This document shows positions 6,175 through 31,543 of a stretch of 32,000 nt of DNA, piece by piece. How positions within the stretch are numbered: position 1 is the first letter of the stretch; each line of letters begins with the position of its first letter. The position numbers and the translations under genes were made by a program. The stretch comes from Erysipelotrichaceae bacterium (GTDB lineage: Bacteria; Bacillota_I; Bacilli_A; Erysipelotrichales; Coprobacillaceae). Location: contig JAQVDW010000006.1 in NCBI GenBank assembly GCA_028698185.1, positions 63,816 through 95,815 on the forward strand, written 5' to 3'. A model generated the notes under the pieces. The model was given only the letters and a program-made list of their open reading frames with translations. It made no database searches and was not told the origin of the DNA.

Positions 6175-6176
6175 AA

Positions 6177-7619
6177 TTATTCACCTACTTTTTCTAATTC
6201 TTTGATAATCTTTGTTTCCTTGATGTTGAAGCGTTCCAACGCTTTTGCATGATTGTAGAACTTGTCCAGCAAGGCATTGTCAAGACGATCCAATGCGGTC
6301 TTTGGCAAGACTGAAAGCAGGTCCCAAGCCAAGTCCAGAGTATATTCGATTGAGCGGTTGTCATCGAAACCTTGTCTGACGAACTGTCCTTCGAACAGGC
6401 GGCCAAACTTCACGTATTCCTTGTCAAGATCAGACAACTCGTCTTCACCGATAACCGACATCAATGATTTTACTTCGCTGACGTGGTTGTAGCAGGCAAA
6501 CAGCTGGTTGGCAACATCCTGGTGGTCATAACGGGTATAACCTTCCCCGATACCATCTTTCATCAGACGTGATAGTGAGGGCAGCACTCCTACTGGAGGG
6601 TAGATTCCCGCACTGTTAAGATCGATATCCATTGAAATCTGACCTTCAGTTATGTATCCGGTCAAATCGGGAACCGGGTGGGTGATGTCGTTGTTTGGCA
6701 TGGTCAGGATTGGAATTTGGGTAACCGATCCTTTGGCGTATTTGGAAATCCCCGCTCTTTCATAGAGTGATGCCAAATCCGAATACAGGTAACCTGGATA
6801 CCCTTTACGGCCTGGTATCTCCCCGGTTGAAGAAGAGAATTCACGCAACGCCTCACAGTATGAAGTGACATCGGTATAGATAACCAGTACGTGCATGTTT
6901 TCTTCAAAAGCCAGGTATTCAGCTGCGGTAAGAGCGCATCTTGGAGTCAGGATTCTCTCGATGATCGGGTCATTTGAAATGTTCAAGAACATCACAACCC
7001 GGTCCATGATTCCCGCTTCCTTGAAGCTCCGTTTGAAGTAATCCGCAACGTCGTTGGTAACCCCCATAGCTCCAAAGACAACCGCGAAACCTTGGCCATT
7101 GTCTTGCGCCACTTTTGCCTGCTTTACGATTTGAACCGCCAACTGGTTGTGGGGCAATCCTGAAACCGAGAAAATCGGCAACTTCTGACCACGGATCAAG
7201 GTAGTCAGACAGTCGATGGTAGAAATACCGGTATTGATGTAATCACGTGGATAAACACGAGATACCGGATTAAGAGGCAAACCGTTGATGTCCATTGACT
7301 TGTTTGCATAAACCTGTCCTAGACCGTCGATCGGTTTCCCCGCTCCGTTGAATACTCTCCCCAGAATCTCTCTGGAAACCGCAAGTTCCATCGGATGCCC
7401 GGTAAGGCGGGTCTGTGAATTAGTGAGCGAAAGCTCGAATGTTCCTTCAAAGACCTGGATAACGACTTTTTTGCCAGAGATTTGGACAATCCGGCCATTA
7501 CGCATTGTGCCGTTATCCAGATGCAGTTCGACCATCTCGTCGTAGCTGGCGTTTTCAACGTTATCCAAAACTACCAATGGTCCATTGATTTCATTTAAAC
7601 CGACATATTTTAGACTCAT
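6177..7619 (-). CDS. ntpB: V-type ATP synthase subunit B
   Basis: 480 aa. It has V-type B blocks (INGPLVVL, FGAMGVTNDVADYF, PGRKGYPGYLYSDLASLYERAG) and no Walker A GKT. Confidence 0.95.
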   Translation of the reverse strand: MSLKYVGLNEINGPLVVLDNVENASYDEMVELHLDNGTMRNGRIVQISGKKVVIQVFEGTFELSLTNSQTRLTGHPMELAVSREILGRVFNGAGKPIDGLGQVYANKSMDINGLPLNPVSRVYPRDYINTGISTIDCLTTLIRGQKLPIFSVSGLPHNQLAVQIVKQAKVAQDNGQGFAVVFGAMGVTNDVADYFKRSFKEAGIMDRVVMFLNISNDPIIERILTPRCALTAAEYLAFEENMHVLVIYTDVTSYCEALREFSSSTGEIPGRKGYPGYLYSDLASLYERAGISKYAKGSVTQIPILTMPNNDITHPVPDLTGYITEGQISMDIDLNSAGIYPPVGVLPSLSRLMKDGIGEGYTRYDHQDVANQLFACYNHVSEVKSLMSVIGEDELSDLDKEYVKFGRLFEGQFVRQGFDDNRSIEYTLDLAWDLLSVLPKTALDRLDNALLDKFYNHAKALERFNIKETKIIKELEKVGE

Positions 7620-7629
7620 TTTATCCCCC

Positions 7630-9378
7630 CTAAGCTACTGACTGGATTGCTTGATCGATCTCTTTGATATAGCTGTCGAGCAATTCAATATTATCATTTG
7701 GAACATCATATTTCATTTTTACAATCTTATCGAAAATTCCGGTTTTAACCAGTTGGGAAACGACCCGACCGCCAGCGACCGCTTGATTCGAACGGTTGTA
7801 CAAGTGAATGATTACTTCCATCATCTTCAACTGTTTGGCCATTGGGACATATGTGTCATCCTTATGGAAGGCATTTTGTTGCAGGTACCCGACCCGGATG
7901 ATGCGGGCCACTTCGATGATCAGTTTTTGGTCTTCAGGCAGGACATCAGGCCCCATCAGGTTGACGATTTCCAGCAATTTCGCCTCTTCGGCCAGAAGGT
8001 AAGCCAGAATCTGGCGGTCTTTGACCCAGTTTTCGCTGACGTTTTCATCAAGCCATGAGCTAAGATCAAGGACATAATCAGAATATGACTGCGTCCAGTT
8101 GATTGCGAAGTAGTGACGGGCATAAGCCAATGATTTGTCCAGCGCCCAGAAACAACGGACGAAACGTTTTGTGTTTTGGGTTACCGGTTCCGAGAAGTCA
8201 GCCCCTTGAGGCGAAACGGCACCGATGATTGTAACCGAACCTTGGCTTCCGTTAAGGTTTTCCATGTATCCGGCACGTTCATAGAATTGAGAAAGACGTG
8301 ATGGCAGGTATGCCGGGAATCCTTCTTCGGCTGGCATTTCTTCGAGACGTCCGGAAATCTCGCGCAACGCTTCGGCCCAGCGAGAAGTCGAGTCCGCCAT
8401 GATTGCCACGTGGTATCCCATGTCACGATAATACTCCGCCAAAGTCACCCCGGTGTAAATTGACGCTTCACGCGCCGCAACCGGCATGTTTGAAGTATTG
8501 GCGATAAGCACTGTACGGTCGGTCAACGGCCGGTTTGATTTCGGATCGATCAGCTCTCCGAATTCTTCAAGAACCTGGGTCATTTCGTTCCCACGTTCTC
8601 CGCACCCTACATAGACGATGATGTCGGCATCGCACCATTTTGCGATCTGATGCTGGGTCATTGTCTTACCGGTACCAAACCCGCCTGGAATTGCGGCAGT
8701 CCCGCCTTTGGCGATCGGGAAAAGGGTGTCGATTACCCGTTGCCCGGTAACAAGGGGCATCGCGATCGGCAGACGTTCCTTGATCGGACGGGCGATTTTT
8801 ATCGGCCACTTTTGCATCAGGGAAATTTCATGCACTTTGCCATTGGCATCTTCCAATTTCACCAATGTTGTCTGGACATTGTACTGTCCATTTGGAGCAA
8901 CTTCAATGACTGTCCCGCGAATATTTGGCGGTACCATCGATTTGTGGGTGATCAACGGTGTTTCCGGGCAGGTCGCGATGACCGCACCGCTTTCCAGTTC
9001 ATCTCCAAGTGCCACTTGGATTGTGACATCCCACAATCTTTCCAGATCCAATGATGGGACATTGGAACCGGCTTCGATGAAGGCTCCTGATTGTTCTTCT
9101 AAATCTTTCAATGGTCTTTCGATCCCATCGAATATGTTTGTGATAATTCCGGGACCAAGTGTCGCCGATATTGGTGAACCTGTTGATAAAACTGGCTCTC
9201 CGGGTTTTAATCCAGTGGTCGTTTCATAAACCTGGATCGTTGTGAACTTGTCATTGATTGAGATTACTTCCCCCATCAACTGACTGTGTCCGACATAAAC
9301 CATCTCTAACATCTGGAATGTTTTCGAGTCTTTTACTTTAACAACGGGTCCATTGATTGAATAAATTACATCGCTCAT
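7630..9378 (-). CDS. ntpA: V-type ATP synthase catalytic subunit A
   Basis: 582 aa. Walker A is PGGFGTGKT. Other blocks are VYVGCGERGNEM and PAEEGFPAYLPSRLSQFYERAG. Confidence 0.95.
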   Translation of the reverse strand: MSDVIYSINGPVVKVKDSKTFQMLEMVYVGHSQLMGEVISINDKFTTIQVYETTTGLKPGEPVLSTGSPISATLGPGIITNIFDGIERPLKDLEEQSGAFIEAGSNVPSLDLERLWDVTIQVALGDELESGAVIATCPETPLITHKSMVPPNIRGTVIEVAPNGQYNVQTTLVKLEDANGKVHEISLMQKWPIKIARPIKERLPIAMPLVTGQRVIDTLFPIAKGGTAAIPGGFGTGKTMTQHQIAKWCDADIIVYVGCGERGNEMTQVLEEFGELIDPKSNRPLTDRTVLIANTSNMPVAAREASIYTGVTLAEYYRDMGYHVAIMADSTSRWAEALREISGRLEEMPAEEGFPAYLPSRLSQFYERAGYMENLNGSQGSVTIIGAVSPQGADFSEPVTQNTKRFVRCFWALDKSLAYARHYFAINWTQSYSDYVLDLSSWLDENVSENWVKDRQILAYLLAEEAKLLEIVNLMGPDVLPEDQKLIIEVARIIRVGYLQQNAFHKDDTYVPMAKQLKMMEVIIHLYNRSNQAVAGGRVVSQLVKTGIFDKIVKMKYDVPNDNIELLDSYIKEIDQAIQSVA

Positions 9379-9392
9379 ACAATTTCCCCTTC

Positions 9393-9989
9393 CTATTTGA
9401 TTATCAAGCCTGAATTTTTAGTGAAATATGCCATTTGGTCATCCAAAATGAAACTCAATGAGTTATCGATGACCACATTTGTCTTCGGATTCAACAATAT
9501 GAATCCTCCGATTGTCAGTTTTTCACTGACAACTACTTCAGCTTTCAATCCGTACGCGCTCAATATTTTCGCTTCGTATTTTTTGTCCTTTTCGCTGACT
9601 AAGATTTGCGCTTCATCAAAATTGTGATTTTGGGCAGCCGCTTTTACTTTTGACAACAAAAATTCCTCATATTTTTCACTGTTTGTAAAATCAATCAGTT
9701 TGGCTCTGGCACCTTCAAAAACCGTTTTGACATAACCGTCGCGCAGGTTTATCAGTTCCTGGCGCTGTTTGGTCGCGTCTGTCGCACTGGCAACAGTCGA
9801 TTTCAATTGAAGTGCCGCAAGTTCCTTGTCGAATCGAGCCTGAATTTCTTTGACAACCTCCAGTTTGATTTCCTCTTTAGCTTTTTCTCTTAATTCCTGA
9901 GCTTCTTCCAAGAGTCTGTTTTCCTGAGTGGCTGCTTCTCGTTCAATCTCTTCTTTCATGTAAAGAAATACTTGATCATTATTTGGCAT
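9393..9989 (-). CDS. ntpE: V-type ATP synthase subunit E
   Basis: 199 aa, with a charged coiled-coil N-terminus and a globular C-terminus (TIGGFILLN). Start chosen at ATG 9989, with AGGAG 7 nt upstream. The track ORF extension to 10088 overlaps the subunit F gene. Confidence 0.8.
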   Translation of the reverse strand: MPNNDQVFLYMKEEIEREAATQENRLLEEAQELREKAKEEIKLEVVKEIQARFDKELAALQLKSTVASATDATKQRQELINLRDGYVKTVFEGARAKLIDFTNSEKYEEFLLSKVKAAAQNHNFDEAQILVSEKDKKYEAKILSAYGLKAEVVVSEKLTIGGFILLNPKTNVVIDNSLSFILDDQMAYFTKNSGLIIK

Positions 9990-9999
9990 CACATTACTC

Positions 10000-10308
10000 C
10001 TATAGTTTAACCCCAACTGCTTCCGATACGTATCTGTCGATAGTCTCACCGATTTTCGACTCGCCATGGCGGTCAGGTATCTCCACAATTAACGGCTGAC
10101 GTTGTTTTAGTTTGATTTGTGAGATAACATCAGGTGCTAGCTCAATAAGTTTTGTCGTAATCAAGATAATTCCAATGGATTTATCTTTAATTTTTTCTTC
10201 AAGCAGTTCCAGGAACTCGCGTCGTTCATGAACCACTTCGCCTTCAATACCTACTAACCTTAGCCCAACTTGAGTATCCACGTTATCACTAAGTAAATAG
10301 AATTTCAT
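10000..10308 (-). CDS. V-type ATP synthase subunit F
   Basis: 102 aa. MKFYLLSDNVDTQVGLRLVGIEG is typical of the V/A-type F subunit. The RBS is AAGGAG. Confidence 0.85.
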   Translation of the reverse strand: MKFYLLSDNVDTQVGLRLVGIEGEVVHERREFLELLEEKIKDKSIGIILITTKLIELAPDVISQIKLKQRQPLIVEIPDRHGESKIGETIDRYVSEAVGVKL

Positions 10309-10318
10309 TGGTCGCTCC

Positions 10319-10753
10319 TTATAAAGAGTTGATAATCAAGATAGAAATCAATAATCCGTAGATTGCAACCCCTTCACCTAAGGCTACGAAGATCAATGAA
10401 CGCCCGAAGTTTGCAGGGTTTTCAGAGAATGCTCCGATGGCTGCAGATGATGCTGAAGAAACGGCGATCCCGGCACCCAAAGCCGCCAGACCGGTCGACA
10501 ATGCAGCTGCGACGAATCCCAAACCTTGAGCGATTGTCCCAGTCATCGGGTTTGTTGCTTCCTCTGCCAATACGCCGTTAGTCATGATTGAGAAAGTGAA
10601 CACCAAAGCTACCGCTCCAAAGAAACCAAGAACGTGAGTCGCAAGACGGAACTTAGCCGATTTCACATCACATTTCCCTTGGAATACTTTTACTAAAGGT
10701 AAAGACAACAGTACTACTGCAACTAAAGGTAAGATAAATTCTACTAATTTCAT
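10319..10753 (-). CDS. ntpK: V-type ATP synthase subunit K (proteolipid, c-ring)
   Basis: 144 aa. The C-terminal 75 aa form a Gly/Ala-rich helical hairpin with the ion-binding Glu in LGEGVAIYGL. The N-terminal 65 aa hold two further hydrophobic segments. Confidence 0.85.
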   Translation of the reverse strand: MKLVEFILPLVAVVLLSLPLVKVFQGKCDVKSAKFRLATHVLGFFGAVALVFTFSIMTNGVLAEEATNPMTGTIAQGLGFVAAALSTGLAALGAGIAVSSASSAAIGAFSENPANFGRSLIFVALGEGVAIYGLLISILIINSL

Positions 10754-10774
10754 TTTAAGATTCTCCTCGTTATG

Positions 10775-12661
10775 TTATTTATTGACAATATTCTTGAATG
10801 GCATTCCATCACCATCATAATATCTTGAAAACATTTCATAAAACTCAAGCCGCAATACTTGGATCCCGACGATAAGACCTTCAAGCCCCATTACGAACAG
10901 GTTACCGAATATCAAGACCAGATAATAACCGATACCGCCGAACATTTCCGCGATGGTGTATACCACCAGCATCATCCCCGCATGGGACAGGACGAATCCA
11001 CCAACCCGCAAGAATGACATCGTATTCGCCAAAAATGTCAGCATGATTTCGAACAATTCAAAGAACGCTTCGGTCAGCCCCATCGCCACCCCTTCAGGGA
11101 AAAGCTTGTGGCCTTCGATTTTCCGTTCGATGATCTCCTTGAAGAACATCAAGAAGAAAGTTACAATCGCCAGAACGGTAAGGACCGGCTTGATGCCAAG
11201 ATCGACCCCGAACATCCCAAGAGCCAATAGCAGCACCGAGACATAGAAAACCAGACCGGAAATGCAGTTTTGGGAGAGCACCATCTCCACGTACTTCTTG
11301 CGACGGAGGTTGGTGATTATCGCAATCGACATCGAAACGACGATCAAAGCGATCCCCAGGCCGACCGAAAAGCCTAACAGGGTCATGGTGTTGGCCGATT
11401 CCATCGGAAGGAAAATCGGTGTCAAAATTTCCTCGGAACCGAATACCGAACCGAAGATGACTCCAAAAAATATCGAGACAAGGGCAACCCGCATTCCGAT
11501 TCCCGCAAGAGCGTTTTTGGTTTTACGGTAGATCAGACTCGCAATGATGCCGATAAGCAGACCTTGCCCGACATCGGCGAACATGATCCCGAAAAGCAAC
11601 GAATACGACAGAGCCAGATAGCTAGTCGGGTCGATATCCCGATATGAAGGCACGCCATACATCTCGACAAAGATTCTAAACGGTTTGGAAAACCAGTTTT
11701 CGGTCAGTTTTGTCGGCGGGACAAGCCGGACATCGCTGTCGGCGGGACGCAGGGAAACATGGACATTTTCGAAACGCTCGAAATTGGCCTTGAATTCCTC
11801 GGATTTGCTTTTTTCCACAAACCCGGTTATCGCCAGATGGTCGCCCACCACGTAGACATAACGTTGCATGATGAAAATCGCATTGAGATGCTTGACGACG
11901 GTATAGATCCGATTAATTTCCTCAAAATTGTTCTGATACAATTTTTGGATTCGATTCTGATATTTGAATATGTTTTTCTGTGAAAGGTTTGTCTCCTCCT
12001 GGATTTCCTCAATCGCCCGCTTGGGATCCCCATGGGCAAACGCCGGAATATGAACCCGCTCGAACAATAGCGACGAAAACATGTTGTCGATTTCAGGCGC
12101 GTCATTTGGCGTTGTCACATACATGCACCAGGTAAAATCTTCAACCTCGTGGAACTGTCTGATGAAAAAAGGCATACCTTCATAGAAGCGCAGCTTTGCC
12201 AGGTTCTTGGTCGGGAGCTTCCCGAACCGGATTTGGAGATATTTTGTCGTGAAAAGCTCGTCAAAGTTGACATCCATTTCAACTACATTGCGGATATGAA
12301 TCACAGCTTCGCCGTTTTCCTTGACAAGCCGTTCAAGCTTCTCGATTACCGCTCCATATTTGTCGACTTCATTGATGAAGTTTTCGACGTAATGCTTGGC
12401 GGTAATCATGTTGATCCGGTTTGAAATGTGGCTTTGCTCAACCAGGTCGAACTTGTATTTTTTCGCTGCCGATTCAATTTTGTTTAGCAGATCCTCATAA
12501 ATATTCTCATCATTCCAGGCTGCCAGACTTTTTACGTTGGCAGTGAATTTAGAAGCGGGCTCCAGATGAATTTCATTGTAATTCAACAAATTGACAAGTA
12601 ATTCATTGTGACTGCGACGATCAAAATTGATATTTACCAGATTTAATTTTGTAATTGCCAC
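10775..12661 (-). CDS. ntpI: V-type ATP synthase subunit I (a-type stator/ion channel)
   Basis: 628 aa with a GTG start and GGGAGG 8 nt upstream. It has a soluble N-terminal half and a polytopic C-terminal half. The C-terminal half contains the conserved Arg helix (MSFLRVGGFVLSHAG) and the IQVLRLEFYEMFSRYYDGDG tail. Confidence 0.9.
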   Translation of the reverse strand: MAITKLNLVNINFDRRSHNELLVNLLNYNEIHLEPASKFTANVKSLAAWNDENIYEDLLNKIESAAKKYKFDLVEQSHISNRINMITAKHYVENFINEVDKYGAVIEKLERLVKENGEAVIHIRNVVEMDVNFDELFTTKYLQIRFGKLPTKNLAKLRFYEGMPFFIRQFHEVEDFTWCMYVTTPNDAPEIDNMFSSLLFERVHIPAFAHGDPKRAIEEIQEETNLSQKNIFKYQNRIQKLYQNNFEEINRIYTVVKHLNAIFIMQRYVYVVGDHLAITGFVEKSKSEEFKANFERFENVHVSLRPADSDVRLVPPTKLTENWFSKPFRIFVEMYGVPSYRDIDPTSYLALSYSLLFGIMFADVGQGLLIGIIASLIYRKTKNALAGIGMRVALVSIFFGVIFGSVFGSEEILTPIFLPMESANTMTLLGFSVGLGIALIVVSMSIAIITNLRRKKYVEMVLSQNCISGLVFYVSVLLLALGMFGVDLGIKPVLTVLAIVTFFLMFFKEIIERKIEGHKLFPEGVAMGLTEAFFELFEIMLTFLANTMSFLRVGGFVLSHAGMMLVVYTIAEMFGGIGYYLVLIFGNLFVMGLEGLIVGIQVLRLEFYEMFSRYYDGDGMPFKNIVNK

Positions 12662-12676
12662 AAATAATCCTCCCTT

Positions 12677-14035
12677 CTAAAATTCTACTTTTTTGCTTGT
12701 CATACCTCGGACAACAGCCAGAATCACCGTCAGCAAAATGATTCCGATAAAGAAATAAACGACTTTATGGATTGGCTGCAACGGGATCATGATGATGGCA
12801 GGATACAGGTGGTAAGTGTCAAAGACAGTACCGTAGAAAAGTCCTCCGACAAAACCACAACCGCCAAGGGTCAACAAGGCACGGCCGATGTTTGTTGTCC
12901 GGTGCCCGAAAAGGACTCCGACAAGCATAATCAAAGCGCCCCAACCTAGATCACCCAAGAACAAGGCTGCCAGCAATGAATAGCCGATTGCAATAAAAGG
13001 CGTCAGATCGACAGTGTCCCTGTGTCTAGGTTTCAGGATACCCTCGAACGACTTCACAAAAAAGTTATTGTGAGTGATTACCGGTGGTTCGATACCTCTG
13101 GAATTGTATATGTTTTTTGGCAATTGAAGGATACGGACTCCCTCAATCCCTTTGAAAATGCCTTCAACTTCAAGGACTGACAGAGTCGAAAAGGCATAAA
13201 TGGCGTTCTTGTTCGAATAATCAACCACATAACGGGCCTGATCAAACAATAGTTTCAAGTTGTAGATTTTGGTAAAGGCGCTCAACACCTGTTGTTGATA
13301 CTCCTGAGAAATTACCTCAATCCGTTCATTGATGTGGCCGATATAGTTGTTCATCGCTTCACATTCCGTTTTCAATTCACTGATGGCACTGTCTAAAGTA
13401 CCATGAGCGAAATCCGGAAGTTTAACCAATTCAAACGAAACCGAATCGAAAATATTGTCGATTTCAGCGATGTCTTTGGTCAAACCGGTATAGATACCCC
13501 ATATATAGTCCTTGTTTTGCGAATATTCCTTGAATATGAACGGATATTCGTTGTAATACTTCAATTTTTCATATTCACTTGCAGGAATTCGGCCAAAGCG
13601 ACATTTGATAAATTGGGTTGCTTCGATTTCATCCAAGTTGATATTTTGATTAGAAATTTCATTCAAGATCTGGATTGCGTTGAAGTTTTCCTCGCGAACA
13701 GTCACGATCTCGTCGCGGATTTTCACAGCCAGATCCAGTTTTTCGCTCACTTCGCCAATCAGCTTGTTCGCTAGCGCAATGCTTAGCGATTCACCGTGAT
13801 ACTCTGATGTCTGTTTTTCAAGACCGAGATTGTCAAGGAGGTGATACATTTTTTCCAATGTCTCGTTATAAGGATTTTCCTGATCCATCACAGTTACACC
13901 CTTGACATTGTTTGCCAACAGTTTGGAATCAAGAGGGAACATCTTGTCCTCGTTTTTCTTAATCAAAATCAAAACTTGCATCAAATCAGAAGAATTAAAG
14001 GTCACATTATATAAGTGCGTTGGTACAATTGCCAT
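12677..14035 (-). CDS. Truncated paralog of V-ATPase subunit I: N-terminal cytoplasmic domain plus about 3 TM helices, lacking the Arg channel helices
   Basis: 452 aa. It aligns by eye with the I subunit. One matching pair is CRFGRIPASEYEKLKYYNEYPFIF..AEIDNIFDSVSFELVKLPDFAHG against IRFGKLPTKNLAKLRFYEGMPFFI..PEIDNMFSSLLFERVHIPAFAHG. Another is FIAIGYSLLAALFLGDLGWG against YLALSYSLLFGIMFADVGQG. It ends after the third hydrophobic segment. The RBS is AGGAGA. Confidence 0.75.
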   Translation of the reverse strand: MAIVPTHLYNVTFNSSDLMQVLILIKKNEDKMFPLDSKLLANNVKGVTVMDQENPYNETLEKMYHLLDNLGLEKQTSEYHGESLSIALANKLIGEVSEKLDLAVKIRDEIVTVREENFNAIQILNEISNQNINLDEIEATQFIKCRFGRIPASEYEKLKYYNEYPFIFKEYSQNKDYIWGIYTGLTKDIAEIDNIFDSVSFELVKLPDFAHGTLDSAISELKTECEAMNNYIGHINERIEVISQEYQQQVLSAFTKIYNLKLLFDQARYVVDYSNKNAIYAFSTLSVLEVEGIFKGIEGVRILQLPKNIYNSRGIEPPVITHNNFFVKSFEGILKPRHRDTVDLTPFIAIGYSLLAALFLGDLGWGALIMLVGVLFGHRTTNIGRALLTLGGCGFVGGLFYGTVFDTYHLYPAIIMIPLQPIHKVVYFFIGIILLTVILAVVRGMTSKKVEF

Positions 14036-14044
14036 GACTTTCTC

Positions 14045-15073
14045 CTAACTATAAATTAATAACGATTCGATACTTGCCCCATCGCGACCATAGCGGATGC
14101 CTTCGATGATATGAATCAAGTTATCGATCTCTATTTTGGCAAGCATAGTGTATGCCAGATAGGCTACCGCATCATCGCTTGTCAAATACAAGAAATGACG
14201 GCACATGTGATATCTGACAAAGGCTACCGATTCCTCAATCGAAGTATCGGGAGCTAATTGCGAAGCGTCACTATAACGGATTCGCTCTTTGATCATCGAG
14301 TACAACGCCTCGATGCTTTTGGCTTCCAGGAGCTCTTGATAGCTCTCTTTGGAAATGCGGGAATATTTTAAAAAGAGCGATTGCAAGATGACTTCATTGG
14401 CCTCGTCAGGGAAATACGTTTTATATCGCACAAGCTTCGCGAGATTGCGAAGATCGATTGACATCGACAGGATTTCCAGAAGATCCGATTTGGTCTTGTT
14501 TGAAAAGTTCTTTTTAATCGCTTTAAAATATGTCCGGTAATAGAACTCCATGAATTCCTTGTTCAACTTGTTGAAATTGATCGGCATCTCGAAGTCGATG
14601 CCCTCGATCAGGAAGGAGTACTTGGTGTTCTTTAAAAACGCTACTAGTTCTTTATGAGTATCCACATTAATTAAACCGCGCAGATCAAAACTTGCGTGAT
14701 CGGCAACATACTGCGACACATTGACTTGAAATGCCTCAGGCATTGTGGTTATGGTTGCAATTTTTTCGAGGATTACATTAATCTCGATACCCATAATTTC
14801 CATGTAGTAAAACTGTTTTTTCTCTTTCGGTGCAAAACGAAGCAGCCCTGCACAGCGGCGGTAATATTCCTGATTTAAAATCGATTCGACTTCCTGACGG
14901 TGAATGATCCGAGGATTGGCATCCTGAAATGCCTCACTGTAAGAAGATTTCTGTTTCAAATAGGTTACAACATCACCAATTGTCTGTTTGCGCGCCAATT
15001 CCATATATGCATCTTGAAGAATCCGATTACCATACCGCGCTTTTGCCTTGGTACTTAATACATTAGATGACAT
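14045..15073 (-). CDS. ntpC: V-type ATP synthase subunit C (eukaryotic d / AC39 family)
   Basis: 342 aa. The size and the all-helical repeat pattern fit the family, as does the N-terminus (KAKARYGNRILQDAYMELARKQTIGDVVTYLKQ). The operon position is also consistent. The RBS is AAGGAGAG. Confidence 0.7.
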   Translation of the reverse strand: MSSNVLSTKAKARYGNRILQDAYMELARKQTIGDVVTYLKQKSSYSEAFQDANPRIIHRQEVESILNQEYYRRCAGLLRFAPKEKKQFYYMEIMGIEINVILEKIATITTMPEAFQVNVSQYVADHASFDLRGLINVDTHKELVAFLKNTKYSFLIEGIDFEMPINFNKLNKEFMEFYYRTYFKAIKKNFSNKTKSDLLEILSMSIDLRNLAKLVRYKTYFPDEANEVILQSLFLKYSRISKESYQELLEAKSIEALYSMIKERIRYSDASQLAPDTSIEESVAFVRYHMCRHFLYLTSDDAVAYLAYTMLAKIEIDNLIHIIEGIRYGRDGASIESLLIYS

Positions 15074-15085
15074 ATAGCTCTCCTT

Positions 15086-15394
15086 TTAGGATAAACAGCG
15101 TTGTACTAATTCGTCTATCCAAGCGTCTTTGTTTTGATTAAACTTAAGTTCTAATTCGGCTTTGGAACTATCGTAATCTTTGGTTTTTGCCGAAGTCTTG
15201 GCCAAAAGATTGCTTTGGAATTCAATTTTTTGCTTTTCAAGTTCTGCGGCTTTTTCAGCCCATAATTTTTCATAAAGTTCTTTTCTTATCGACTGCATGT
15301 CATCAGTAGCGTGGAACTTCTGATTTTTTGCCTGTTCGACACGATTAGCACACTCATGATCGATTCGGACTAATTCCTGAATTATATTATCCAT
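15086..15394 (-). CDS. Small coiled-coil protein, probable V-ATPase peripheral stalk subunit (G/H-like)
   Basis: 102 aa, highly charged heptad-rich sequence. It is the first gene of the operon, as the short stalk subunit is in the Enterococcus hirae ntp operon. The RBS is GAAGGAGGG. Confidence 0.5.
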   Translation of the reverse strand: MDNIIQELVRIDHECANRVEQAKNQKFHATDDMQSIRKELYEKLWAEKAAELEKQKIEFQSNLLAKTSAKTKDYDSSKAELELKFNQNKDAWIDELVQRCLS

Positions 15395-15417
15395 TTTTCT
15401 CCCTCCTTCAACCGTTT

Positions 15418-15445
15418 ATTATACTCTTTTGACAACATGAATCAA
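15418..15445 (-). promoter_or_regulatory. Candidate promoter of the V-ATPase operon
   Basis: Minus strand: TTGATT (15445-15440), 16-nt spacer, TATAAT (15423-15418), about 25 nt upstream of the first ATG. Confidence 0.5.
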
Positions 15446-15552
15446 ATTAAAATGAACATATTTTACATATTTTTTTTGTAAGCGTAACCATGTTTCTCGG
15501 ACTTTAAAAAGTGAGAAATTAATGTTATAATCTAGACCAAGGAGACGATCCC

Positions 15553-17313
15553 ATGAAAGAAAATAAACTTATAAAATTTCAAGAATTAATGAAAAAAAAC
15601 AAGATTGATTACTACATCGTGCCAACCAGCGATTTCCACTCAAGTGAAATTGCCGGTGCCTATTTCCAAGGCCGCAAATACCTCAGCGGTTTCACCGGTT
15701 CGGCAGGAACCCTTCTTTTCGGTCTTGAAAAGATCTACCTTTATGTCGACGGACGCTATTTCATTCAGGCTGACCAGCAAGTCGACTTGAGCATGATTAC
15801 GGTCATGAAGATCGGCCAGCCCGAATGCATCGACATGATCGACATCTTCAATCAGGACCAAACCAAGGTTGTCGGCTTTGACGGTCGCTGCGTATCCCAC
15901 AAATTCGCCGCTTCCATCAAAAATCCGATCGTCAGCGATATCGATTTGATCGACCAGGTATGGACTGACCGTCCGGAACTTTCAAAAGAACCTGTCTATA
16001 ACTACAGTATAGAATACTGCGGCCAATCACGCAAAGAAAAACTGGCTCAAATCCGCGATAAAATGAATGCTGGCACCCATATCGTCACGACATTGGACGA
16101 TATCGCCTACATTTTCAATTTGCGGGGCAACGACATCTGCCACACGCCCGTTTTCTACAGCTACGCGCTGATTTCCAAAACTCAGGCAATTCTATACCTG
16201 AACAAAGATTCTGTGAGCGAAACGCTGAAAATTGAGCTTGAACAAGACGGAGTAACCATCAAGGATTACTATGCCATCTACGATGACGCCAAAACGATCG
16301 AAGGTTCCATCCAGCTCGACACCAGCGTGGTCAACCACCAGATCGTTTCCAGCCTTGAAGGGACCGTGGTCGACTGCATGAATCCAAGCCAGCTGCTAAA
16401 GGCAATCAAGAACGAAACCGAGATTTCCAATACCCGGATTGCCCATATCAAGGATGGCTTGGCCATGACCAAGTTCATGCACTATCTCAAAACCAGCATC
16501 GCCAATGTCGCAATGGACGAACTGAGCGCAGATGAGATCCTGACTGGATACCGCCAGGAACAACCCGATTTCAAAGGCTTGTCGTTTGCGACAATCTGCG
16601 CCTATGAACAAAACGCCGCCCTGATGCACTACAGCGCCACAAAAGAAAATCACGCCCGACTCGAACCCAGGGGACTGCTTCTTATCGATAGCGGCGGGCA
16701 ATACCTCCAGGGGACAATCGACACAACCCGAACATTTGTCTTAGGTCCGATCAGCGATGTCCAGAAACACCATTTCACCCTGGTCTTCAAGGCGATGAAC
16801 AACCTCCAGCAGGCCCGGTTCCTGCATGGCAAAACCGGTGTCGGCCTAGATATTCTCGCCCGCGGGATAATCCAGCAGGAAAACCTGGATTACCAATGCG
16901 GCACCGGACATGGGGTCGGTCACTACCTTTCAGTCCATGAAGGGCCCCACGGTCTGCGCCCGGTGAAGAGGGAAAACGACCAGGATTCAATCTTCGAACC
17001 GGGCATGATCGTCACCGACGAGCCGGGCATTTACCTGGCTGGCGAATACGGCATCCGGCTTGAAAACGAGCTCCTGGTCACAAAGGGAGAAAAGAACTTC
17101 TATGGCCAGTTCCTCCATTTCGAAACCCTGACCATGGTCCCCATCGATCTTGATGGCATCAATCTTGCCATGCTCAACGATAAAGAGAGAAAACAGCTAT
17201 GCGACTACCACCAGCTCGTCTACAGCAATATCGAATACGGTCTGAATGACATCGAGAAGCAATGGTACCAGGAAACCCTGATCGCCCCGCTTCTTACTTC
17301 GCTTGACAAATAA
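15553..17313 (+). CDS. pepP: Xaa-Pro aminopeptidase (aminopeptidase P family, M24B, long form)
   Basis: 586 aa with a creatinase-like N-terminal domain and an M24 catalytic domain. Metal-ligand blocks are LLIDSGGQY, GTGHGVGHYLSVHEGP, TDEPGIY and IRLENE. The RBS is AAGGAGA. Confidence 0.9.
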   Translation: MKENKLIKFQELMKKNKIDYYIVPTSDFHSSEIAGAYFQGRKYLSGFTGSAGTLLFGLEKIYLYVDGRYFIQADQQVDLSMITVMKIGQPECIDMIDIFNQDQTKVVGFDGRCVSHKFAASIKNPIVSDIDLIDQVWTDRPELSKEPVYNYSIEYCGQSRKEKLAQIRDKMNAGTHIVTTLDDIAYIFNLRGNDICHTPVFYSYALISKTQAILYLNKDSVSETLKIELEQDGVTIKDYYAIYDDAKTIEGSIQLDTSVVNHQIVSSLEGTVVDCMNPSQLLKAIKNETEISNTRIAHIKDGLAMTKFMHYLKTSIANVAMDELSADEILTGYRQEQPDFKGLSFATICAYEQNAALMHYSATKENHARLEPRGLLLIDSGGQYLQGTIDTTRTFVLGPISDVQKHHFTLVFKAMNNLQQARFLHGKTGVGLDILARGIIQQENLDYQCGTGHGVGHYLSVHEGPHGLRPVKRENDQDSIFEPGMIVTDEPGIYLAGEYGIRLENELLVTKGEKNFYGQFLHFETLTMVPIDLDGINLAMLNDKERKQLCDYHQLVYSNIEYGLNDIEKQWYQETLIAPLLTSLDK

Positions 17314-17350
17314 AAAAATGGGTCCGTTTTATTAATGGACCCATTTTTTA
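17312..17350. terminator. Bidirectional terminator between pepP and the ATP-cone gene
   Basis: A6-ATGGGTCC-GTTTTATTAAT-GGACCCAT-T5. Confidence 0.75.
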
Positions 17351-18451
17351 TTTGTAGTTTATTATCAGCTGACCATCAAGGCCTTCAAAAAGATGCCCGT
17401 CTTGAAGGGATTGGCCCGTTTGGGAGTTGATAAGGTCGAGCTGGTTGACAGTGGTGTCGAACGCCAGATATTGCCGGTAGATTCCCAGCATTTTTGTACT
17501 GTTGATGAAAAGCTGGCGACTGGACTTGTTCAAGAACACTTTCAGGCGCTTCTCGAGTCCGACCAGGTCGATTCCTAGATCCGGGCTTTTTTTATCGAGC
17601 AAGGCGACATCGACAGCGATATTGTAGATGACATTGGCACCGGCAAAATCACTTTCAAAAGTGATATGAGGCCTTGTCAGACCCTGGCAAACCACTTCTT
17701 CTAGATCACCGGCTTCAATTTCCAAGCTGTTTTCCAGGAAAATCTCGAGACTGTCGAAAACGAGTCCCAATTTCTTCATAAAACCGGAATCGCCGGTGAG
17801 TAGGTCCAGGAATGTCTTGAAGTTGCAAAGGCGCAACGGTCCTTGCTGGTATCTGTCAAAATACATCACGACTTGCATGAACCGGTTCAATAAAACATCG
17901 CTGTTTTCCCCCGTTATCTTGGAACAGTCGATCACGTATTGGTAGATCAGGTCATCAAGGTAAGCGAGGTTGTTTATGCTCATTATATTCTGCTCGAGAG
18001 CTTTGGTCACAAAACAGTCAAAATGATTCGACTGGTTGTAATTTGCCAGGCTGGCCTCCCCCAAGATGCGAGAGCGCTCTTTGGGCGAGTTATAGAAGCT
18101 GTTTTTAGGCCGATAGGACTCCAGCTGCTCGAACGAGCTCCCCAGGGTCGCCGCTATCTTGCGCTGGTTCGACCGCTTTTCCCGGTACAGGATATAGGCT
18201 TTGGCCGCCCGGATATAGTTCTTTTCAATCAAGACTTCCTCGACAATATCCTGGACAAACTCGACTGTGGGAACTTCAACATCCCTGGTCTCGATTATTT
18301 TTACAACTTCATTGGCAAGCTGGATTGGAACCTGCTTGTCATAGTTTTTTATGCAATCACTTGCCTGAAACGATTTGTCGATCGCAACGGCAATCTTGTC
18401 GAGCTCAAAAGGCACCAGCGACCCGTCACGCTTCAATATCAGCTTAATCAT
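17348..18451 (-). CDS. ATP-cone domain protein with an uncharacterised 270-aa C-terminal region
   Basis: Start chosen at ATG 18451, with GGAGGG 6 nt upstream. The N-terminal 95 aa are a clear ATP-cone (MIKLILKRDGSLVPFELDKIAVAI .. VEFVQDIVEEVLIEKNYIRAAKAYILYREKR). The rest has no motif I recognise with confidence. Confidence 0.8.
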   Translation of the reverse strand: MIKLILKRDGSLVPFELDKIAVAIDKSFQASDCIKNYDKQVPIQLANEVVKIIETRDVEVPTVEFVQDIVEEVLIEKNYIRAAKAYILYREKRSNQRKIAATLGSSFEQLESYRPKNSFYNSPKERSRILGEASLANYNQSNHFDCFVTKALEQNIMSINNLAYLDDLIYQYVIDCSKITGENSDVLLNRFMQVVMYFDRYQQGPLRLCNFKTFLDLLTGDSGFMKKLGLVFDSLEIFLENSLEIEAGDLEEVVCQGLTRPHITFESDFAGANVIYNIAVDVALLDKKSPDLGIDLVGLEKRLKVFLNKSSRQLFINSTKMLGIYRQYLAFDTTVNQLDLINSQTGQSLQDGHLFEGLDGQLIINYK

Positions 18452-20093
18452 CGATATCCCTCCAATTTCCACAAATCAATTGTACACGATAATCTTTGAA
18501 GATGCCAACGATATAATCATTCCCGATTCTTTCAACCAGGCTGTAGCGAAACAGCAACTCCTGATCGTAACCCTTATCCACCAGATGATGCAGGACTTTC
18601 TTGGCCTCACCAATGCTCAGGGTCGGTTCATAGAAGCGTTTGGGTTTCACTTTGGCATTCGTGAAGTAGTCACAGACAAGTTCCTTGAACAGGGCCTGAT
18701 TCTCCTTTTGCAGGAATTCAAAGAGGTAGCCATACAGTTCGTGAAGCTGGTACCCCATCTTTTTGAAATTGCGCCCCCGATAAAATTCGCCGAGTTTCAA
18801 GAAGAAATCAAACATCGAAGGATAGCGTTCATATATCTTGTTCATGGTCGCCTCAAAGCGGCCGCTGTTCCAGTATTTTTCCAGCATATCTTCGACCAGG
18901 TGGATCTTGGCGATATCTTCAGCGCTCAGATCCGCCGAACTGGTTATCTCATAAGGGGCTGTCTGTTCGAACTCGTAGCCATATTCCTCATGATTCTGGC
19001 GCAGGCTCGTTCCCCGCAGGAGCTTCAAGAAGCCTAGCTGCAATTCCTTGGGTTTCAAGGCGAAGACATCATCGAAAGATTTCTTGAACCTTGCAAGCTT
19101 TTCAAGAGGCAATCCGGCAATCAGATCGAGGTGGAGAACGATATTGTGGGCCTGTTGGAGAGTAGTAATGACTTGTTCAAGCCGCTGGAAGTTCTGATAT
19201 CTTTTCACAATCAGGTTCGTTGGTTCATAGGTCGATTGGATCCCGATTTCCAGCCGCACCAGATCAGGCGGCACCTGCTGGGTCAAAAAATCAAGCAGGC
19301 GTTGGTCGAGGACATCGCCGTTTATTTCGAACTGGAAAACAACCCCGGCATCCTTTTTCGTCACAATATATTCCAGGATGGCCAACGCATGCTCATATTT
19401 GGCATTGAACGAACGGTCAAGAAACTTCACAGTCTTGGCCCCGCTGGCGATAATGGCATCAAGCTGTCCGGTCAGATAATCCACTGAGAAAAAGCGCAGT
19501 CCGACTTCCAGCGAGGAAAGGCAATATTGGCACTGGTAGGGGCAGCCACGACTTGTCTCGAAATAGAGAATCCGGTTTTTCATGTCCTTGAGATCCTTGT
19601 CCAGAACATAAGGTGAGTCGAGGCTTTCAATATAGCTAGGATCAACCAGTCTGGTCTGGTAGTGATCCCTTTTATGTCTTGATGAAACGCCGCGGATGGA
19701 AACTTCCTGGCCGTTTTCAATACAGTCAAGAAGACTGTTTAGCGCCACTTCACCTTCGCCGGAAATGAGATAGTCAATTTGATAATTGTCCATGAAATGG
19801 TCGACATCATAGCTTACTTCCGGACCGCCTACGATGATGTTTATTGCCGGGAACCTTGCTTTTATCGTGGAAATCAAAGCCATGGTCTTTTCAACGTTCC
19901 ATATATAGACGGAAAAGACAAGGTTGTCCGGCTGGAAGTCCATCAGACTGGCCAGAATCATTTCGCTTTCTTCCTTGATAGTGAATTCGACAAAGTCGAC
20001 ATCATGGTGATCCTTGCAGGCGACATAGAGCAGGCGCAAAGACAGGGCCTTATGAATGAATTTGGAGTTTAGAGTAGTAATTATTGTTTTCAT
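18444..20093 (-). CDS. B12-binding-domain radical SAM protein with a C-terminal extension (DUF4080-like, from memory)
   Basis: 549 aa. The N-terminus is flavodoxin-like and of the cobalamin-binding type (IITTLNSKFIH..NLVFSVYIWN..IIVGGPEVS). The radical SAM cluster motif is SRGCPYQCQYC. The stop codon at 18446-18444 overlaps the next gene's start. Confidence 0.85.
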   Translation of the reverse strand: MKTIITTLNSKFIHKALSLRLLYVACKDHHDVDFVEFTIKEESEMILASLMDFQPDNLVFSVYIWNVEKTMALISTIKARFPAINIIVGGPEVSYDVDHFMDNYQIDYLISGEGEVALNSLLDCIENGQEVSIRGVSSRHKRDHYQTRLVDPSYIESLDSPYVLDKDLKDMKNRILYFETSRGCPYQCQYCLSSLEVGLRFFSVDYLTGQLDAIIASGAKTVKFLDRSFNAKYEHALAILEYIVTKKDAGVVFQFEINGDVLDQRLLDFLTQQVPPDLVRLEIGIQSTYEPTNLIVKRYQNFQRLEQVITTLQQAHNIVLHLDLIAGLPLEKLARFKKSFDDVFALKPKELQLGFLKLLRGTSLRQNHEEYGYEFEQTAPYEITSSADLSAEDIAKIHLVEDMLEKYWNSGRFEATMNKIYERYPSMFDFFLKLGEFYRGRNFKKMGYQLHELYGYLFEFLQKENQALFKELVCDYFTNAKVKPKRFYEPTLSIGEAKKVLHHLVDKGYDQELLFRYSLVERIGNDYIVGIFKDYRVQLICGNWRDIDD

Positions 20094-20104: not shown

Positions 20105-20128
20105 AAAAAAAGCCTGAATAATCAGGCT
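20105..20128 (-). terminator. Rho-independent terminator after the M15 peptidase gene
   Basis: Minus strand: AGCCTGA-TTAT-TCAGGCT followed by T6, starting at the TAA stop codon. Confidence 0.6.
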
Positions 20129-21360
20129 TAGCGTGCAACCACTGTTGGCAAAATGCCGTTTTCTAAACAGTACTGTTCAAATGTGATGTTTGCATCCGTT
20201 ATTTCCTGGGCAACTTCAGCCCCGACATATCTAAAATGCCACGGTTCGTGGGCAATTCCGGTCAGATCGCTTGTGGATTCAGGGTAACGGTTGATAAAGC
20301 CATATTTTGCCGCGTTGGCCAAAACCCACTTGTATTCGGCGGTGTCACCGAAAGTGATTCTCGTACCATCGACAACCGACTGGCTGGTAAGATCGACTCC
20401 TAGACCGGTCTGGTGTTCGCTTGCTCCGGGCAATGCCACATATTGGGAAGCGTACAGGCCACCATAACGGGTCTCAATATCCTGATAAGTCTGAGCTTGG
20501 ACCGTATATGAGCGGTACCCGCTGTTGAATACCAGACTCAGCCCTTCAGCCTTGGCATCTTCATACATCTGTTGCAAGGCATCTGCCACAACCTGGCGCA
20601 CCAATGGATTTTCACAATCCGGAGCAATCGGCATCGGTGCCTCAACCAGATCACCTGGCTCATATGAATTGTCAAGGTAGAATCCGGCTTTTACCAAAGT
20701 TAGAATCTCATCAGGGTTGGTAATCGTATAACCGCGGCCACTGTATTCAGCGGTCGACAGGATGAACGGATAATTCGTAATCCCGACTGTATATGTCGGA
20801 TTGTTGTTCGTTTTGTCGGCTTCGATGTAGGCTTTCATGTTTTTGACCATGTAGCCGTTAACTTCAAGGTATGGCGCGATTTGGGTCGCACTCAGTTTGT
20901 TGTCGATCAGGTACTCGAAGTCGCTGATTGATGCGCTGTTTGAAACCATCGCCCAGATTCCGTCATGGTCAAATCCCAATTCTTCCAGCTGAGAATATAT
21001 CTCACCATTGAGTTCATCGACGTAGCTGACAATTTCCGATGGCTGATAATCCTGAAAAAGTTCGTAATATTTTTCGTAATCATCATAATTTACCGGGGTC
21101 GCTTCCAGGTCATGCCAGATATCAAAATGTTCCATGAAATCCGATGCCAAAATCTCATTTTCAGCTTCGCCTTCCATCGCCACAATCTGGTTGGCCTGGG
21201 TGAAATTGTAGCCCTTGACCAGGGCCCGGATCCGGTTGAAATTCAGGAATACGACCACAGCGACAATCGCCACAACCAAGCCGATTATCCCAAATATTTT
21301 CAAGTTGTTGTTGCTTTTTCGACCATACGAATAGCTATACGAGTTGCTTCTTTTTAGCAC
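20128..21360 (-). CDS. VanY-like D-alanyl-D-alanine carboxypeptidase (peptidase M15B) with an N-terminal membrane anchor
   Basis: 410 aa. The TM segment is IFGIIGLVVAIVAVVVFL. Zinc-site blocks are SGYRSY, PGASEHQTGLGVDL and HEPWHFRYVG. The GTG start at 21360 has AAGGAG 8 nt upstream and overlaps the preceding gene by 7 nt. Confidence 0.85.
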   Translation of the reverse strand: MLKRSNSYSYSYGRKSNNNLKIFGIIGLVVAIVAVVVFLNFNRIRALVKGYNFTQANQIVAMEGEAENEILASDFMEHFDIWHDLEATPVNYDDYEKYYELFQDYQPSEIVSYVDELNGEIYSQLEELGFDHDGIWAMVSNSASISDFEYLIDNKLSATQIAPYLEVNGYMVKNMKAYIEADKTNNNPTYTVGITNYPFILSTAEYSGRGYTITNPDEILTLVKAGFYLDNSYEPGDLVEAPMPIAPDCENPLVRQVVADALQQMYEDAKAEGLSLVFNSGYRSYTVQAQTYQDIETRYGGLYASQYVALPGASEHQTGLGVDLTSQSVVDGTRITFGDTAEYKWVLANAAKYGFINRYPESTSDLTGIAHEPWHFRYVGAEVAQEITDANITFEQYCLENGILPTVVAR

Positions 21361-27208: not shown

Positions 27209-27441
27209 AAAAAAACGCCCCATAAAAGAGACGTTTTTAACGCGATACCACTCTACTTGCCATCAGTTGACCTGATAACCTCTTTCACTGATAAGGGCAG
27301 TCACCCGAAAGTTATACTTGATTTCCAACTTTCCTCTCCAAAATGCGCTTGGGATTATTTATGTCGCTGACCTTCCACCGCCGTCAGCTCGCTTGAGACT
27401 TCCATAATCTTACTCTTTTTGTCATCGAGTTCAATTTATTT
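27209..27441 (-). promoter_or_regulatory. T-box leader with Arg specifier CGC, controlling argCJB (copy 1 of a duplicated leader)
   Basis: All reads are on the minus strand. The stem I base is GATGACAAAA-AGAGTA. The distal loop is GGCGGTGGAAGG. The specifier loop CCAAG-CGC-A is followed by TTTTG, which pairs with CAAAA (codon at 27347-27345). The T-box sequence GTAGAGTGGTATCGCG lies at 27241-27256. The terminator AACGTCTC..GGGGCGTT plus T7 lies at 27209-27240. Confidence 0.85.
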
Positions 27442-29511: not shown

Positions 29512-29735
29512 AAAAAAACGCCTCTAAAAAAGAGACGTTGTTAACGCGATACCACTCTACTTGCCATCAGTTGACCTGATGACCTCTTTCACTGATAAGG
29601 GCAGTCACCCGAAAGTTATACTTGATTTCCAACTTTCCTCTCCAAAATGCGTTTGGGATTATTTATGTCGCTGACCTTCCACCATCGTCAGTTCGCTTGA
29701 GACTTCCATAATCTTACTCTTTTTTTCCACGAGTT
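29512..29735 (-). promoter_or_regulatory. T-box leader with Arg specifier CGC, controlling the M19 dipeptidase and argF (copy 2 of the duplicated leader)
   Basis: It has the same architecture as 27209-27441. The specifier loop is CCAAA-CGC-A (codon at 29651-29649). The T-box sequence lies at 29545-29560. The terminator AACGTCTCT-TTTTT-AGAGGCGTT plus T7 completes the leader. By manual alignment there are 6 substitutions against copy 1 over the roughly 190-nt core. Confidence 0.85.
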
Positions 29736-29741
29736 ACATAT

Positions 29742-31375: not shown

Positions 31376-31451
31376 GCTTGAATAGCTCAGTTGGTAGAGC
31401 ACTCGGCTGTTAACCGAGCGGTCGTAGGTTCGAGTCCTACTTCAAGCGCCA
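31376..31451 (+). tRNA. tRNA-Asn (GTT)
   Basis: The acceptor stem pairs GCTTGAA with TTCAAGC. The D arm is TAGCTCAGTTGGTAGAGCA, the anticodon loop is CTGTTAA and the T arm is GGTTCGAGTCC. CCA is encoded. Confidence 0.9.
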
Positions 31452-31456
31452 TTTGG

Positions 31457-31532
31457 GGCCCGTTGGAGAAACGGTTAACTCACATGCCTTTCACGCATGC
31501 ATTCACGGGTTCGAATCCCGTACGGGTCACCA
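31457..31532 (+). tRNA. tRNA-Glu (TTC)
   Basis: The acceptor stem pairs GGCCCGT with ACGGGTC. The anticodon stem-loop is CATGC-CTTTCAC-GCATG and the T arm is GGTTCGAATCC. CCA is encoded. Confidence 0.9.
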
Positions 31533-31543
31533 TTAATATATTT

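Follow-up and report, generated by a model that had tools for sequence, protein, structure and literature searches.

A lineage-restricted, probably NrdD-derived pseudoenzyme with an ATP-cone overlaps a class B radical SAM gene in uncultured Coprobacillaceae

The radical SAM gene and the overlapping ATP-cone gene

The stretch analyzed here covers 32,000 nucleotides (nt) of an Erysipelotrichaceae bacterium (GTDB family Coprobacillaceae; assembly GCA_028698185.1, contig JAQVDW010000006.1, positions 63,816 to 95,815) and is referred to as the window throughout. Its minus strand carries a gene for a cobalamin-type radical S-adenosylmethionine (SAM) protein of 549 amino acids (aa), the 3' end of which overlaps a gene for a 367-aa protein with an N-terminal ATP-cone (Table 1). 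An earlier note on this DNA, made from the sequence alone, read the 2 genes as a stand-alone cassette and named nucleotide gating of the radical SAM reaction as one plausible reading. Comparison with related genomes points instead to a remnant of nrdD, the gene of the class III ribonucleotide reductase (RNR).

The radical SAM protein scores 57.4 bits with B12-binding (PF02310), 49.6 bits with Radical_SAM (PF04055), and 101.6 bits with DUF4080 (PF13311), all 3 above the gathering cut-off, so that it qualifies as a class B—i.e. B12-binding—DUF4080 protein. The cobalamin-type N-terminal domain, the CxxxCxxC cluster, and the C-terminal extension that had been proposed for it are all confirmed by the open reading frame (ORF) and by Pfam, and the cysteines of the cluster (C184, C188, and C191) show no variation among homologues. 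These homologues number at least 8000, with identities of about 60% in Thomasclavelia and 45–47% in Dysgonomonas and other Bacteroidota. With class B enzymes such as KedN5, PhpK, HpnR, and BchE, the 549-aa protein shares its B12-binding domain and radical SAM core together with the CxxxCxxC motif, whereas it falls far under the curated cut-off of every named NCBIfam family (best 79.6 bits against 700) and carries the C-terminal DUF4080. As such, NCBIfam does not place it in the characterized equivalogs KedN5, PhpK, HpnR, BchE, TIGR04013, and similar families, and none of the papers in the library searched names DUF4080. On its domain content, the protein is a class B radical SAM enzyme of an uncharacterized DUF4080 subgroup.

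At the junction, the radical SAM stop codon (TAA) falls in the third codon of the 367-aa gene, which creates an 8-nt overlap (ATGATTAA), and a GGAGGG Shine–Dalgarno (SD) sequence stands 6 nt ahead of that gene's ATG. Stop, start, SD, and overlap all lie where the earlier note had put them. A GTG start at 18472, which would yield 374 aa, was dismissed, as the ATG at 18451 has the SD and fits the N-termini of NrdD and of all homologues. The 8-nt overlap is present in the window, in both GTDB species representatives of the clade that carries the 367-aa gene, and in loci L001–L003, L007, and L009. At locus L008 (ERZ21869602 ctg94184l), the radical SAM protein has 555 aa and the overlap is 26 nt; the assembly breaks up several genes (pepP and the I and A subunits of the V-type ATPase), and the oddities of the locus are probably long-read frameshift errors, not biology.

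A consensus scan also places a promoter-like site (TTGGCA-18-TACAAT) 28 nt upstream of the ATG of the 367-aa gene, and this candidate could give the cone gene a transcript of its own. The description of the pair as a stand-alone cassette holds in part: terminator-like hairpins lie on both of its flanks, but a VanY-family gene is only 34 nt upstream. Near the pair, an Rfam scan that covered the full window returned neither a riboswitch nor any other RNA. Finally, a scan with ACACWATATWTWGTGT, which we take to be the NrdR-box consensus, gave matches with 0 mismatches in no locus, and matches with 3 mismatches are at chance level in both the Thomasclavelia ramosa locus (L004) and the window.

Table 1. 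Coordinates of the features discussed in the text (positions are those of the window unless a survey locus is named)
Feature	Position	Strand	Basis and remarks
Xaa-Pro aminopeptidase (M24), pepP	15553..17313	+	Pfam and synteny; convergent, at the far edge of the slot
Bidirectional terminator-like hairpin	17313..17349		16-bp stem with T-runs on both sides; common to the convergent pepP
Truncated 367-aa protein, probably NrdD-derived	17348..18451	-	ORF and synteny; ATP-cone, connector, and putative degenerate half-barrel
Putative degenerate alpha/beta half-barrel, aa 143–345	17417..18025	-	AlphaFold2 (AF2) fold; resembles the N-terminal half of the NrdD core
Connector, aa 95–142	18026..18169	-	Predicted disordered; predicted local distance difference test (pLDDT) <50
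ATP-cone domain, aa 4–94	18170..18442	-	Pfam PF03477
Junction	18444..18463	-	GGAGGG SD 18463-18458; ATG of the 367-aa gene 18451-18449; radical SAM stop 18446-18444
Radical SAM gene, 549 aa	18444..20093	-	ORF; B12-binding/Radical_SAM/DUF4080 protein
Promoter-like site TTGGCA-18-TACAAT	18479..18508	-	Consensus scan; inside the 3' end of the radical SAM gene
Terminator-like hairpin	20110..20129	-	Between the VanY and radical SAM genes
VanY-family D-Ala-D-Ala carboxypeptidase	20128..21360	-	Pfam PF02557; upstream neighbor of the radical SAM gene
Cone ORF of 172–174 aa	L015:4874-5392		
Cone ORF of 172–174 aa	L021:7674-8192		
Cone ORF of 172–174 aa	L022:5721-6245		
Cone ORF of 172–174 aa	L025 from 7670		
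Cone ORF of 172–174 aa	L026 from 7684		
Cone ORF of 172–174 aa	L028 from 7670		

Gene order downstream of the radical SAM gene in related genomes

A radical SAM alignment was searched against 185,579 species genomes, the best 80 species-level radical SAM loci were kept, and NrdD, NrdG, VanY, pepP, and the cone protein were placed in them by tblastn. We find nrdD followed by nrdG directly 3' of the radical SAM gene in 12 of the 80 loci. In T. ramosa (L004), the space between the radical SAM gene and pepP is filled by an nrdD of 767 aa (ATP-cone plus NRDD) and then an nrdG of 171 aa. The 367/371-aa form with the 8-nt overlap occurs in 2 loci, and a much shorter cone ORF of 172–174 aa in 6 (Faecalibacillus, a T. 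spiroformis strain, and relatives). Neither a cone-like gene nor nrdD lies downstream in 58 loci, although 4 of these extend for less than 1 kb on that side; the 58 include all Bacteroidota homologues (about 33 loci) as well as many Erysipelotrichales (e.g. Longibaculum, Stoquefichus, and Massilimicrobiota). Two loci (L041 and L087) with only a partial radical SAM match and no cone were left unclassed. With the exception of the deeper-branching L049, the cone-bearing loci form one syntenic Coprobacillaceae/Erysipelotrichales group, and at L024 pepP stands immediately 3' of the radical SAM gene—i.e. the remnant is wholly lost. The earlier note had proposed a survey for a recurrent pairing of the radical SAM and ATP-cone genes and had named a lack of conserved adjacency in related genomes as one ground for refuting its reading; the pairing is not conserved as such, which largely undoes that reading.

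Relatives of the 367-aa gene all sit in the same gene order, namely RpiR, fumarase alpha and beta, VanY, radical SAM, cone gene, pepP (on the opposite strand), and V-type ATPase. T. ramosa shares this order, with nrdD and nrdG in the place of the cone gene. The clade consists of metagenome-assembled genomes of uncultured Coprobacillaceae, with 2 GTDB species representatives (OY776328.1 and OY780959.1). In a neighbor-joining tree of the radical SAM protein, the window clade stands beside lineages that bear nrdD and nrdG (L023, L029, L031, and Thomasclavelia), and the clade with 172-aa proteins falls in another part of the same group.

The 172–174-aa proteins join a cone that is 67–70% identical to aa 1–106 of T. 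ramosa NrdD to a roughly 65-aa helical tail, in which no similarity to nrdD was found in any frame. Their genes begin 46–61 nt downstream of the radical SAM gene, the loci lack nrdG, and ratios of nonsynonymous to synonymous substitution rates (dN/dS) of 0.05–0.2 indicate purifying selection. These Faecalibacillus-type proteins thus resemble the 367-aa protein in holding the same slot after the same radical SAM gene, in their apparent derivation from nrdD, in the lack of nrdG, and in being selected. By contrast, their truncation is independent, they have no half-barrel, and they are spaced from the radical SAM gene instead of overlapping it.

The junction itself carries traces of nrdD. The 11-mer directly before the ATG of the 367-aa gene (TGGAGGGATAT) is identical to the ribosome-binding-site region of T. 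ramosa nrdD, and the spacer of 95–300 nt that separates the radical SAM stop from nrdD in nrdD-bearing lineages is missing in the window clade. The radical SAM protein measures 549 aa in the window against 540–543 aa in homologues, and because the spacer was lost, its last 8–9 codons are read from the former nrdD 5' untranslated region (UTR). The 8-nt overlap, and with it the supposed translational coupling, is therefore a derived state that arose when the spacer upstream of nrdD was deleted. Taken across the loci, the simplest history would start from an ancestral radical SAM–nrdD–nrdG order, followed by 2 independent truncations and several complete losses.

The slot has changed in other ways as well. 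In 3 of the loci that bear nrdD and nrdG (L012, L014, and L031), the gap between the radical SAM gene and nrdD is about 1.65–1.75 kb, against 40–300 nt elsewhere, with an insertion at that place. In the 371-aa sub-clade, 1 or 2 genes for an 877-aa esterase (PF00756) lie between the cone gene and pepP (L002:11312-13945; L003:10953-13583 and 13818-16451), and because these esterase genes were inserted, the slot can be viewed as a rearrangement hotspot.

On the other side of the radical SAM gene, VanY is the immediate upstream neighbor in nearly all Erysipelotrichales/Coprobacillaceae loci surveyed (the window, L004–L055, and L081), and it was not seen at the Bacteroidota homologues. VanY is thus a far steadier neighbor of the radical SAM gene than the cone gene is, and may possibly hint at the role of the enzyme.

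Sequence, predicted fold, and selection of the 367-aa protein

The sole Pfam match of the 367-aa protein is the ATP-cone, at 72.8 bits against a gathering cut-off of 25.8. A genuine cone at the start of the protein, and no glycyl-radical, zinc-ribbon, or other signature beyond it, is also what the earlier note had described. BLASTP aligns the N-terminus of T. ramosa NrdD with aa 1–118 (49% identity), which is its limit. Profile comparisons extend well past the cone: the NCBIfam NrdD model NF005497 aligns aa 1–167 with its positions 1–168, and hhalign of the full-length profile against an NrdD alignment is collinear up to aa 219; here ALEQNIMSINNLAY lies opposite AHxxGDIHIHDL, and QQGPLRLCNF opposite the Q..GGQ...NFD segment of NrdD. 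The loose line-up of post-cone residues with NrdD suggested in the earlier note is thereby reproduced. When 5.8 billion proteins were searched through a word index, only 6 full-length relatives emerged, with identities of 89–43%; the other matches cover the cone alone, the best of them being NrdD fragments at about 50% identity, and they include ATP-cones fused to non-RNR enzymes (e.g. uridine kinase).

In the NrdD of S. thermophilus (StNrdD), dATP or ATP in site 1 of the cone is contacted by K19, R20, I32, Q79, and Y98 (PMC12662201). A gap-free alignment to the S. thermophilus structure 9D3X equates these residues with K7, R8, I20, Q67, and Y86, which are all invariant in the 367-aa family, and on this conservation the cone looks competent for nucleotide binding. 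The segment after the cone (aa 95–142) is matched by hhalign to the NrdD connector, although the Asn-X-Asn flap of NrdD, with the role described in PMC12662201, is not kept.

Judged by its motifs, the 367-aa protein is a genuine ATP-cone protein and not an NrdR. In NrdR, a zinc ribbon that serves to bind DNA forms the N-terminus, and a cone of about 150 aa the C-terminus. The likeness lies in a noncatalytic protein with the ATP-cone as its sole recognizable module, for which NrdR sets the precedent of a free-standing sensor that works through oligomerization. The 367-aa protein differs by its N-terminal cone, its predicted RNR-like half-barrel, and the lack of a zinc ribbon or DNA-binding motif; specifically, a CxxC pair is missing, and its Pfam and NCBIfam matches include no NrdR model.

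Sequence searches with the part beyond the cone find little. An exhaustive hidden Markov model search, in which everything past aa 118 was compared with 1.84 billion representative proteins, returned the clade's own 2 clusters only. An AF2 model of aa 119–367 alone (pLDDT 75, predicted TM-score (pTM) 0.72) has class III RNRs as its top 18 Foldseek matches in the PDB (Thermotoga maritima, phage T4, and S. thermophilus; E 3e-4 to 7e-3, probability 0.99–1.0, TMq 0.40–0.48), below which come unrelated matches of low probability, and NrdD also ranks first among the Foldseek matches of the full-length model. These models are supportive, not decisive, of a C-terminal part that would be the degenerate first half of an RNR barrel. 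Within it, the best-conserved post-cone stretch (aa 289–308; window about 17528–17587, minus strand) reads S..D.GID..GLE.R...FLN and holds 12 invariant residues; no NrdD counterpart of this stretch was recognized, and a functional site peculiar to the clade may lie here.

Set against NrdD (T. ramosa L004; S. thermophilus 9D3X/9DAU; P. copri 8P23), the 367-aa protein has in common the slot, the ribosome-binding site, the cone, and the site-1 residues, along with a collinear connector and first core segment and a predicted fold that, for the rest, matches NrdD structures only. It differs in having 367 instead of about 767 aa, with a truncation that precedes the finger-loop cysteine (C445 in T. 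ramosa), the glycyl-radical domain, and the zinc site; in having no NrdG partner; and in a core from which the HxHD motif, C178, and the Asn-X-Asn flap have been replaced and which sequence and profile searches no longer recognize. Specifically, columns that are invariant in an NrdD alignment were mapped to the 367-aa protein through hhalign, and H159, G162, H165, H167, D168, and C178 (T. ramosa numbering) correspond to L152, N155, S158, N160, N161, and I169. The only invariant cysteine of the 367-aa family is C146. Pfam finds neither NRDD (PF13597) nor Gly_radical in the protein, its NF005497 score of 74.4 bits is far from the 764 at which that model calls a whole NrdD, and a locus-level search found no nrdG in the window or in loci L010 and L011. 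Going by these residues and domains, the product cannot reduce ribonucleotides and is an NrdD by descent and by no functional criterion. The "headless NrdD" of the earlier note is right in naming an NrdD derivative without the glycyl-radical end, although the protein is tail-less rather than headless; that neither member of the pair fits a characterized family agrees with our profile searches.

The ORF is nevertheless maintained. It is open at 367–372 aa in 7 genomes, with identity down to 43% and synonymous sites saturated. For the 367-aa gene, dN/dS (Nei–Gojobori) is 0.07–0.17. Beyond aa 100, it is 0.18 between the window and L007 and 0.09 between L002 and L003, compared with 0.08–0.09 for the radical SAM gene and about 0.05–0.06 for fumarase. 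Between the window and L007, the post-cone dN of 0.07 exceeds the 0.02–0.04 of neighboring genes, so that this region evolves about twice as fast. Invariant motifs persist in the C-terminal part (FDCF, YQYVID, and DxGID..GLE.R..FLN), and the 367-aa protein is under purifying selection and is not a pseudogene.

Origin of the 367-aa gene, possible partners, and surrounding genes

With a probability of roughly 3 in 4, we consider the 367-aa gene to be the remnant of an ancestral nrdD that lay downstream of the radical SAM gene in this Coprobacillaceae group. Descent from nrdD is favored because synteny, the radical SAM phylogeny, the cone and ribosome-binding-site sequence, and the fold agree, and the adjacency of the radical SAM and cone genes would then be inherited gene order, since it descends from the radical SAM–nrdD–nrdG arrangement. 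The comparison of loci shows that one deletion took out nrdG and the C-terminal half of nrdD, with its finger-loop cysteine, glycyl-radical domain, and zinc site, and that a second took the spacer upstream of nrdD, so that the radical SAM frame enters the old 5' UTR and overlaps the ATG. Purifying selection has kept an intact cone and a fast-evolving, predicted degenerate half-barrel. The product is probably an NrdD-derived, nucleotide-binding pseudoenzyme that may still bind ATP or dATP in its cone, and the dATP/ATP ratio would probably alter its association with itself or with a partner, as it does for the cones of NrdD, NrdB, and NrdR. Owing to the inherited gene order, it would be co-transcribed, and probably co-translated, with the radical SAM gene.

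Several results weigh against descent from nrdD as the full account. Compared with NrdD by hhalign, the C-terminal 250 aa alone give no significant match (E 0.24), though in the same register as the full-length profile, and a profile of the C-terminal region found nothing relevant among PDB sequences. The fold evidence comes from an AF2 model built on 7 sequences, with TM-scores of just 0.40–0.48. In addition, 2 independent truncations kept a selected cone ORF right after the radical SAM gene, and the overlap is stable within the clade; a real functional link to the radical SAM enzyme would be expected to leave the same repeated retention.

Such a link would be closest if the ATP-cone protein were a dedicated regulatory subunit of the radical SAM enzyme, kept stoichiometric by translational coupling and gating it with ATP or dATP. 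The overlap with its embedded SD has been kept across the clade despite saturated synonymous sites, each nrdD truncation left its selected cone ORF in just this place, and ATP-cones are mobile, with further examples joined to uridine kinase and other non-RNR enzymes. However, the adjacency can be traced to the radical SAM–nrdD–nrdG order and the overlap to the spacer deletion, and the radical SAM enzyme does not need a cone, because 58 of the 80 loci have neither cone nor nrdD and L024 dropped the remnant while keeping the radical SAM gene. Moreover, the cone is the sole part common to both types of remnant, with C-terminal parts that differ, the constant neighbor of the radical SAM gene is VanY and not the cone gene, and expression could be uncoupled by the promoter-like site that precedes the ATG of the cone gene. 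We regard a dedicated subunit as unlikely, and a cone that was exapted as the ATP/dATP-sensing subunit of the cobalamin radical SAM enzyme after 2 trimmings, one of them coupled, as a shade less likely again. Functional coupling to the radical SAM enzyme is unproven; nothing found requires it, and the comparison gives it no support; the dedicated nucleotide-gated system of the earlier note finds none either.

It is also unlikely, to a similar degree as the dedicated subunit, that the protein modulates in trans an RNR encoded elsewhere, e.g. by dATP-dependent cone-to-cone or dimer-interface pairing with a full-length NrdD. The intact cone with its invariant ligand residues would suit such a role, and the half-barrel matches by fold the part of NrdD in which, we presume, the dimer interface is located. 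With the T. ramosa NrdD core as query, all of the matches listed (n = 120) are Thomasclavelia-like, at 82–100% identity. No other RNR was seen in the loci covered from these genomes, and among the top 120 cone-containing matches of the 367-aa protein none lies on a contig equal in length to those of the 3 long-contig clade genomes, which speaks weakly against a second close RNR with a cone. Inhibition of StNrdD is known to proceed through dATP-driven cone–cone dimerization (PMC12662201), which is the kind of contact this role would call on. As to the acting partner of the NrdD-derived pseudoenzyme, we would assign a small and equal share to the co-translated radical SAM enzyme and to an RNR encoded elsewhere, and the larger rest to another partner or to none in particular.

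A decaying and functionless remnant, open only through recent truncation, is very improbable. A post-cone region with about double the evolutionary rate of its neighbors, the lack of relatives beyond a tiny clade, and the complete loss of the remnant in the sister lineage L024 would fit it, but the dN/dS of 0.09–0.18, on which we rejected it, does not; nor do an ORF of stable length in 7 genomes at saturated synonymous sites, a confidently modeled domain, and invariant motifs throughout the C-terminal part. Least probable of all is a split NrdD that remains catalytic, of which the 367-aa protein would be one half, with the C-terminal half and activase elsewhere in the genome. We rejected it because, although the predicted fold corresponds to the first half of an RNR barrel, NrdD-invariant residues of that very half (the HxHD motif, C178, and G162) are replaced, the Asn-X-Asn flap is gone, and the sequence has diverged past recognition.

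On the favored reading, the 367-aa protein is a lineage-restricted NrdD-derived pseudoenzyme rather than part of a new system. This removes a tempting but false lead, in that the pairing of radical SAM and ATP-cone genes follows from gene order and reductive evolution and does not amount to a new nucleotide-gated radical SAM system, and it advises caution in neighborhood-based function prediction for the uncharacterized DUF4080 radical SAM family. What remains is the gene of an essential enzyme that was cut down, twice in neighboring lineages, to a selected and catalytically dead protein with an intact nucleotide-sensing module. If the remnants truly sense ATP or dATP, they would add further free-standing cone regulators to NrdR and offer a handy minimal system for studies of cone behavior. 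If the cone was indeed exapted, its pairing with a cobalamin radical SAM enzyme would be without characterized precedent.

The region is flanked by a PPK1 polyphosphate kinase gene (3344-5557, plus strand) and a complete V-type ATPase operon (5554-15394, minus strand), both of them ordinary surroundings. The window also contains 3 T-box leaders, all on the minus strand and scoring 117–128 bits (174-402, 27224-27434, and 29528-29738), 2 of which sit in an arginine-biosynthesis block (argC/argJ/argB and ornithine transcarbamylase), and a cluster of 6 tRNA genes at 31376-31877 on the plus strand.

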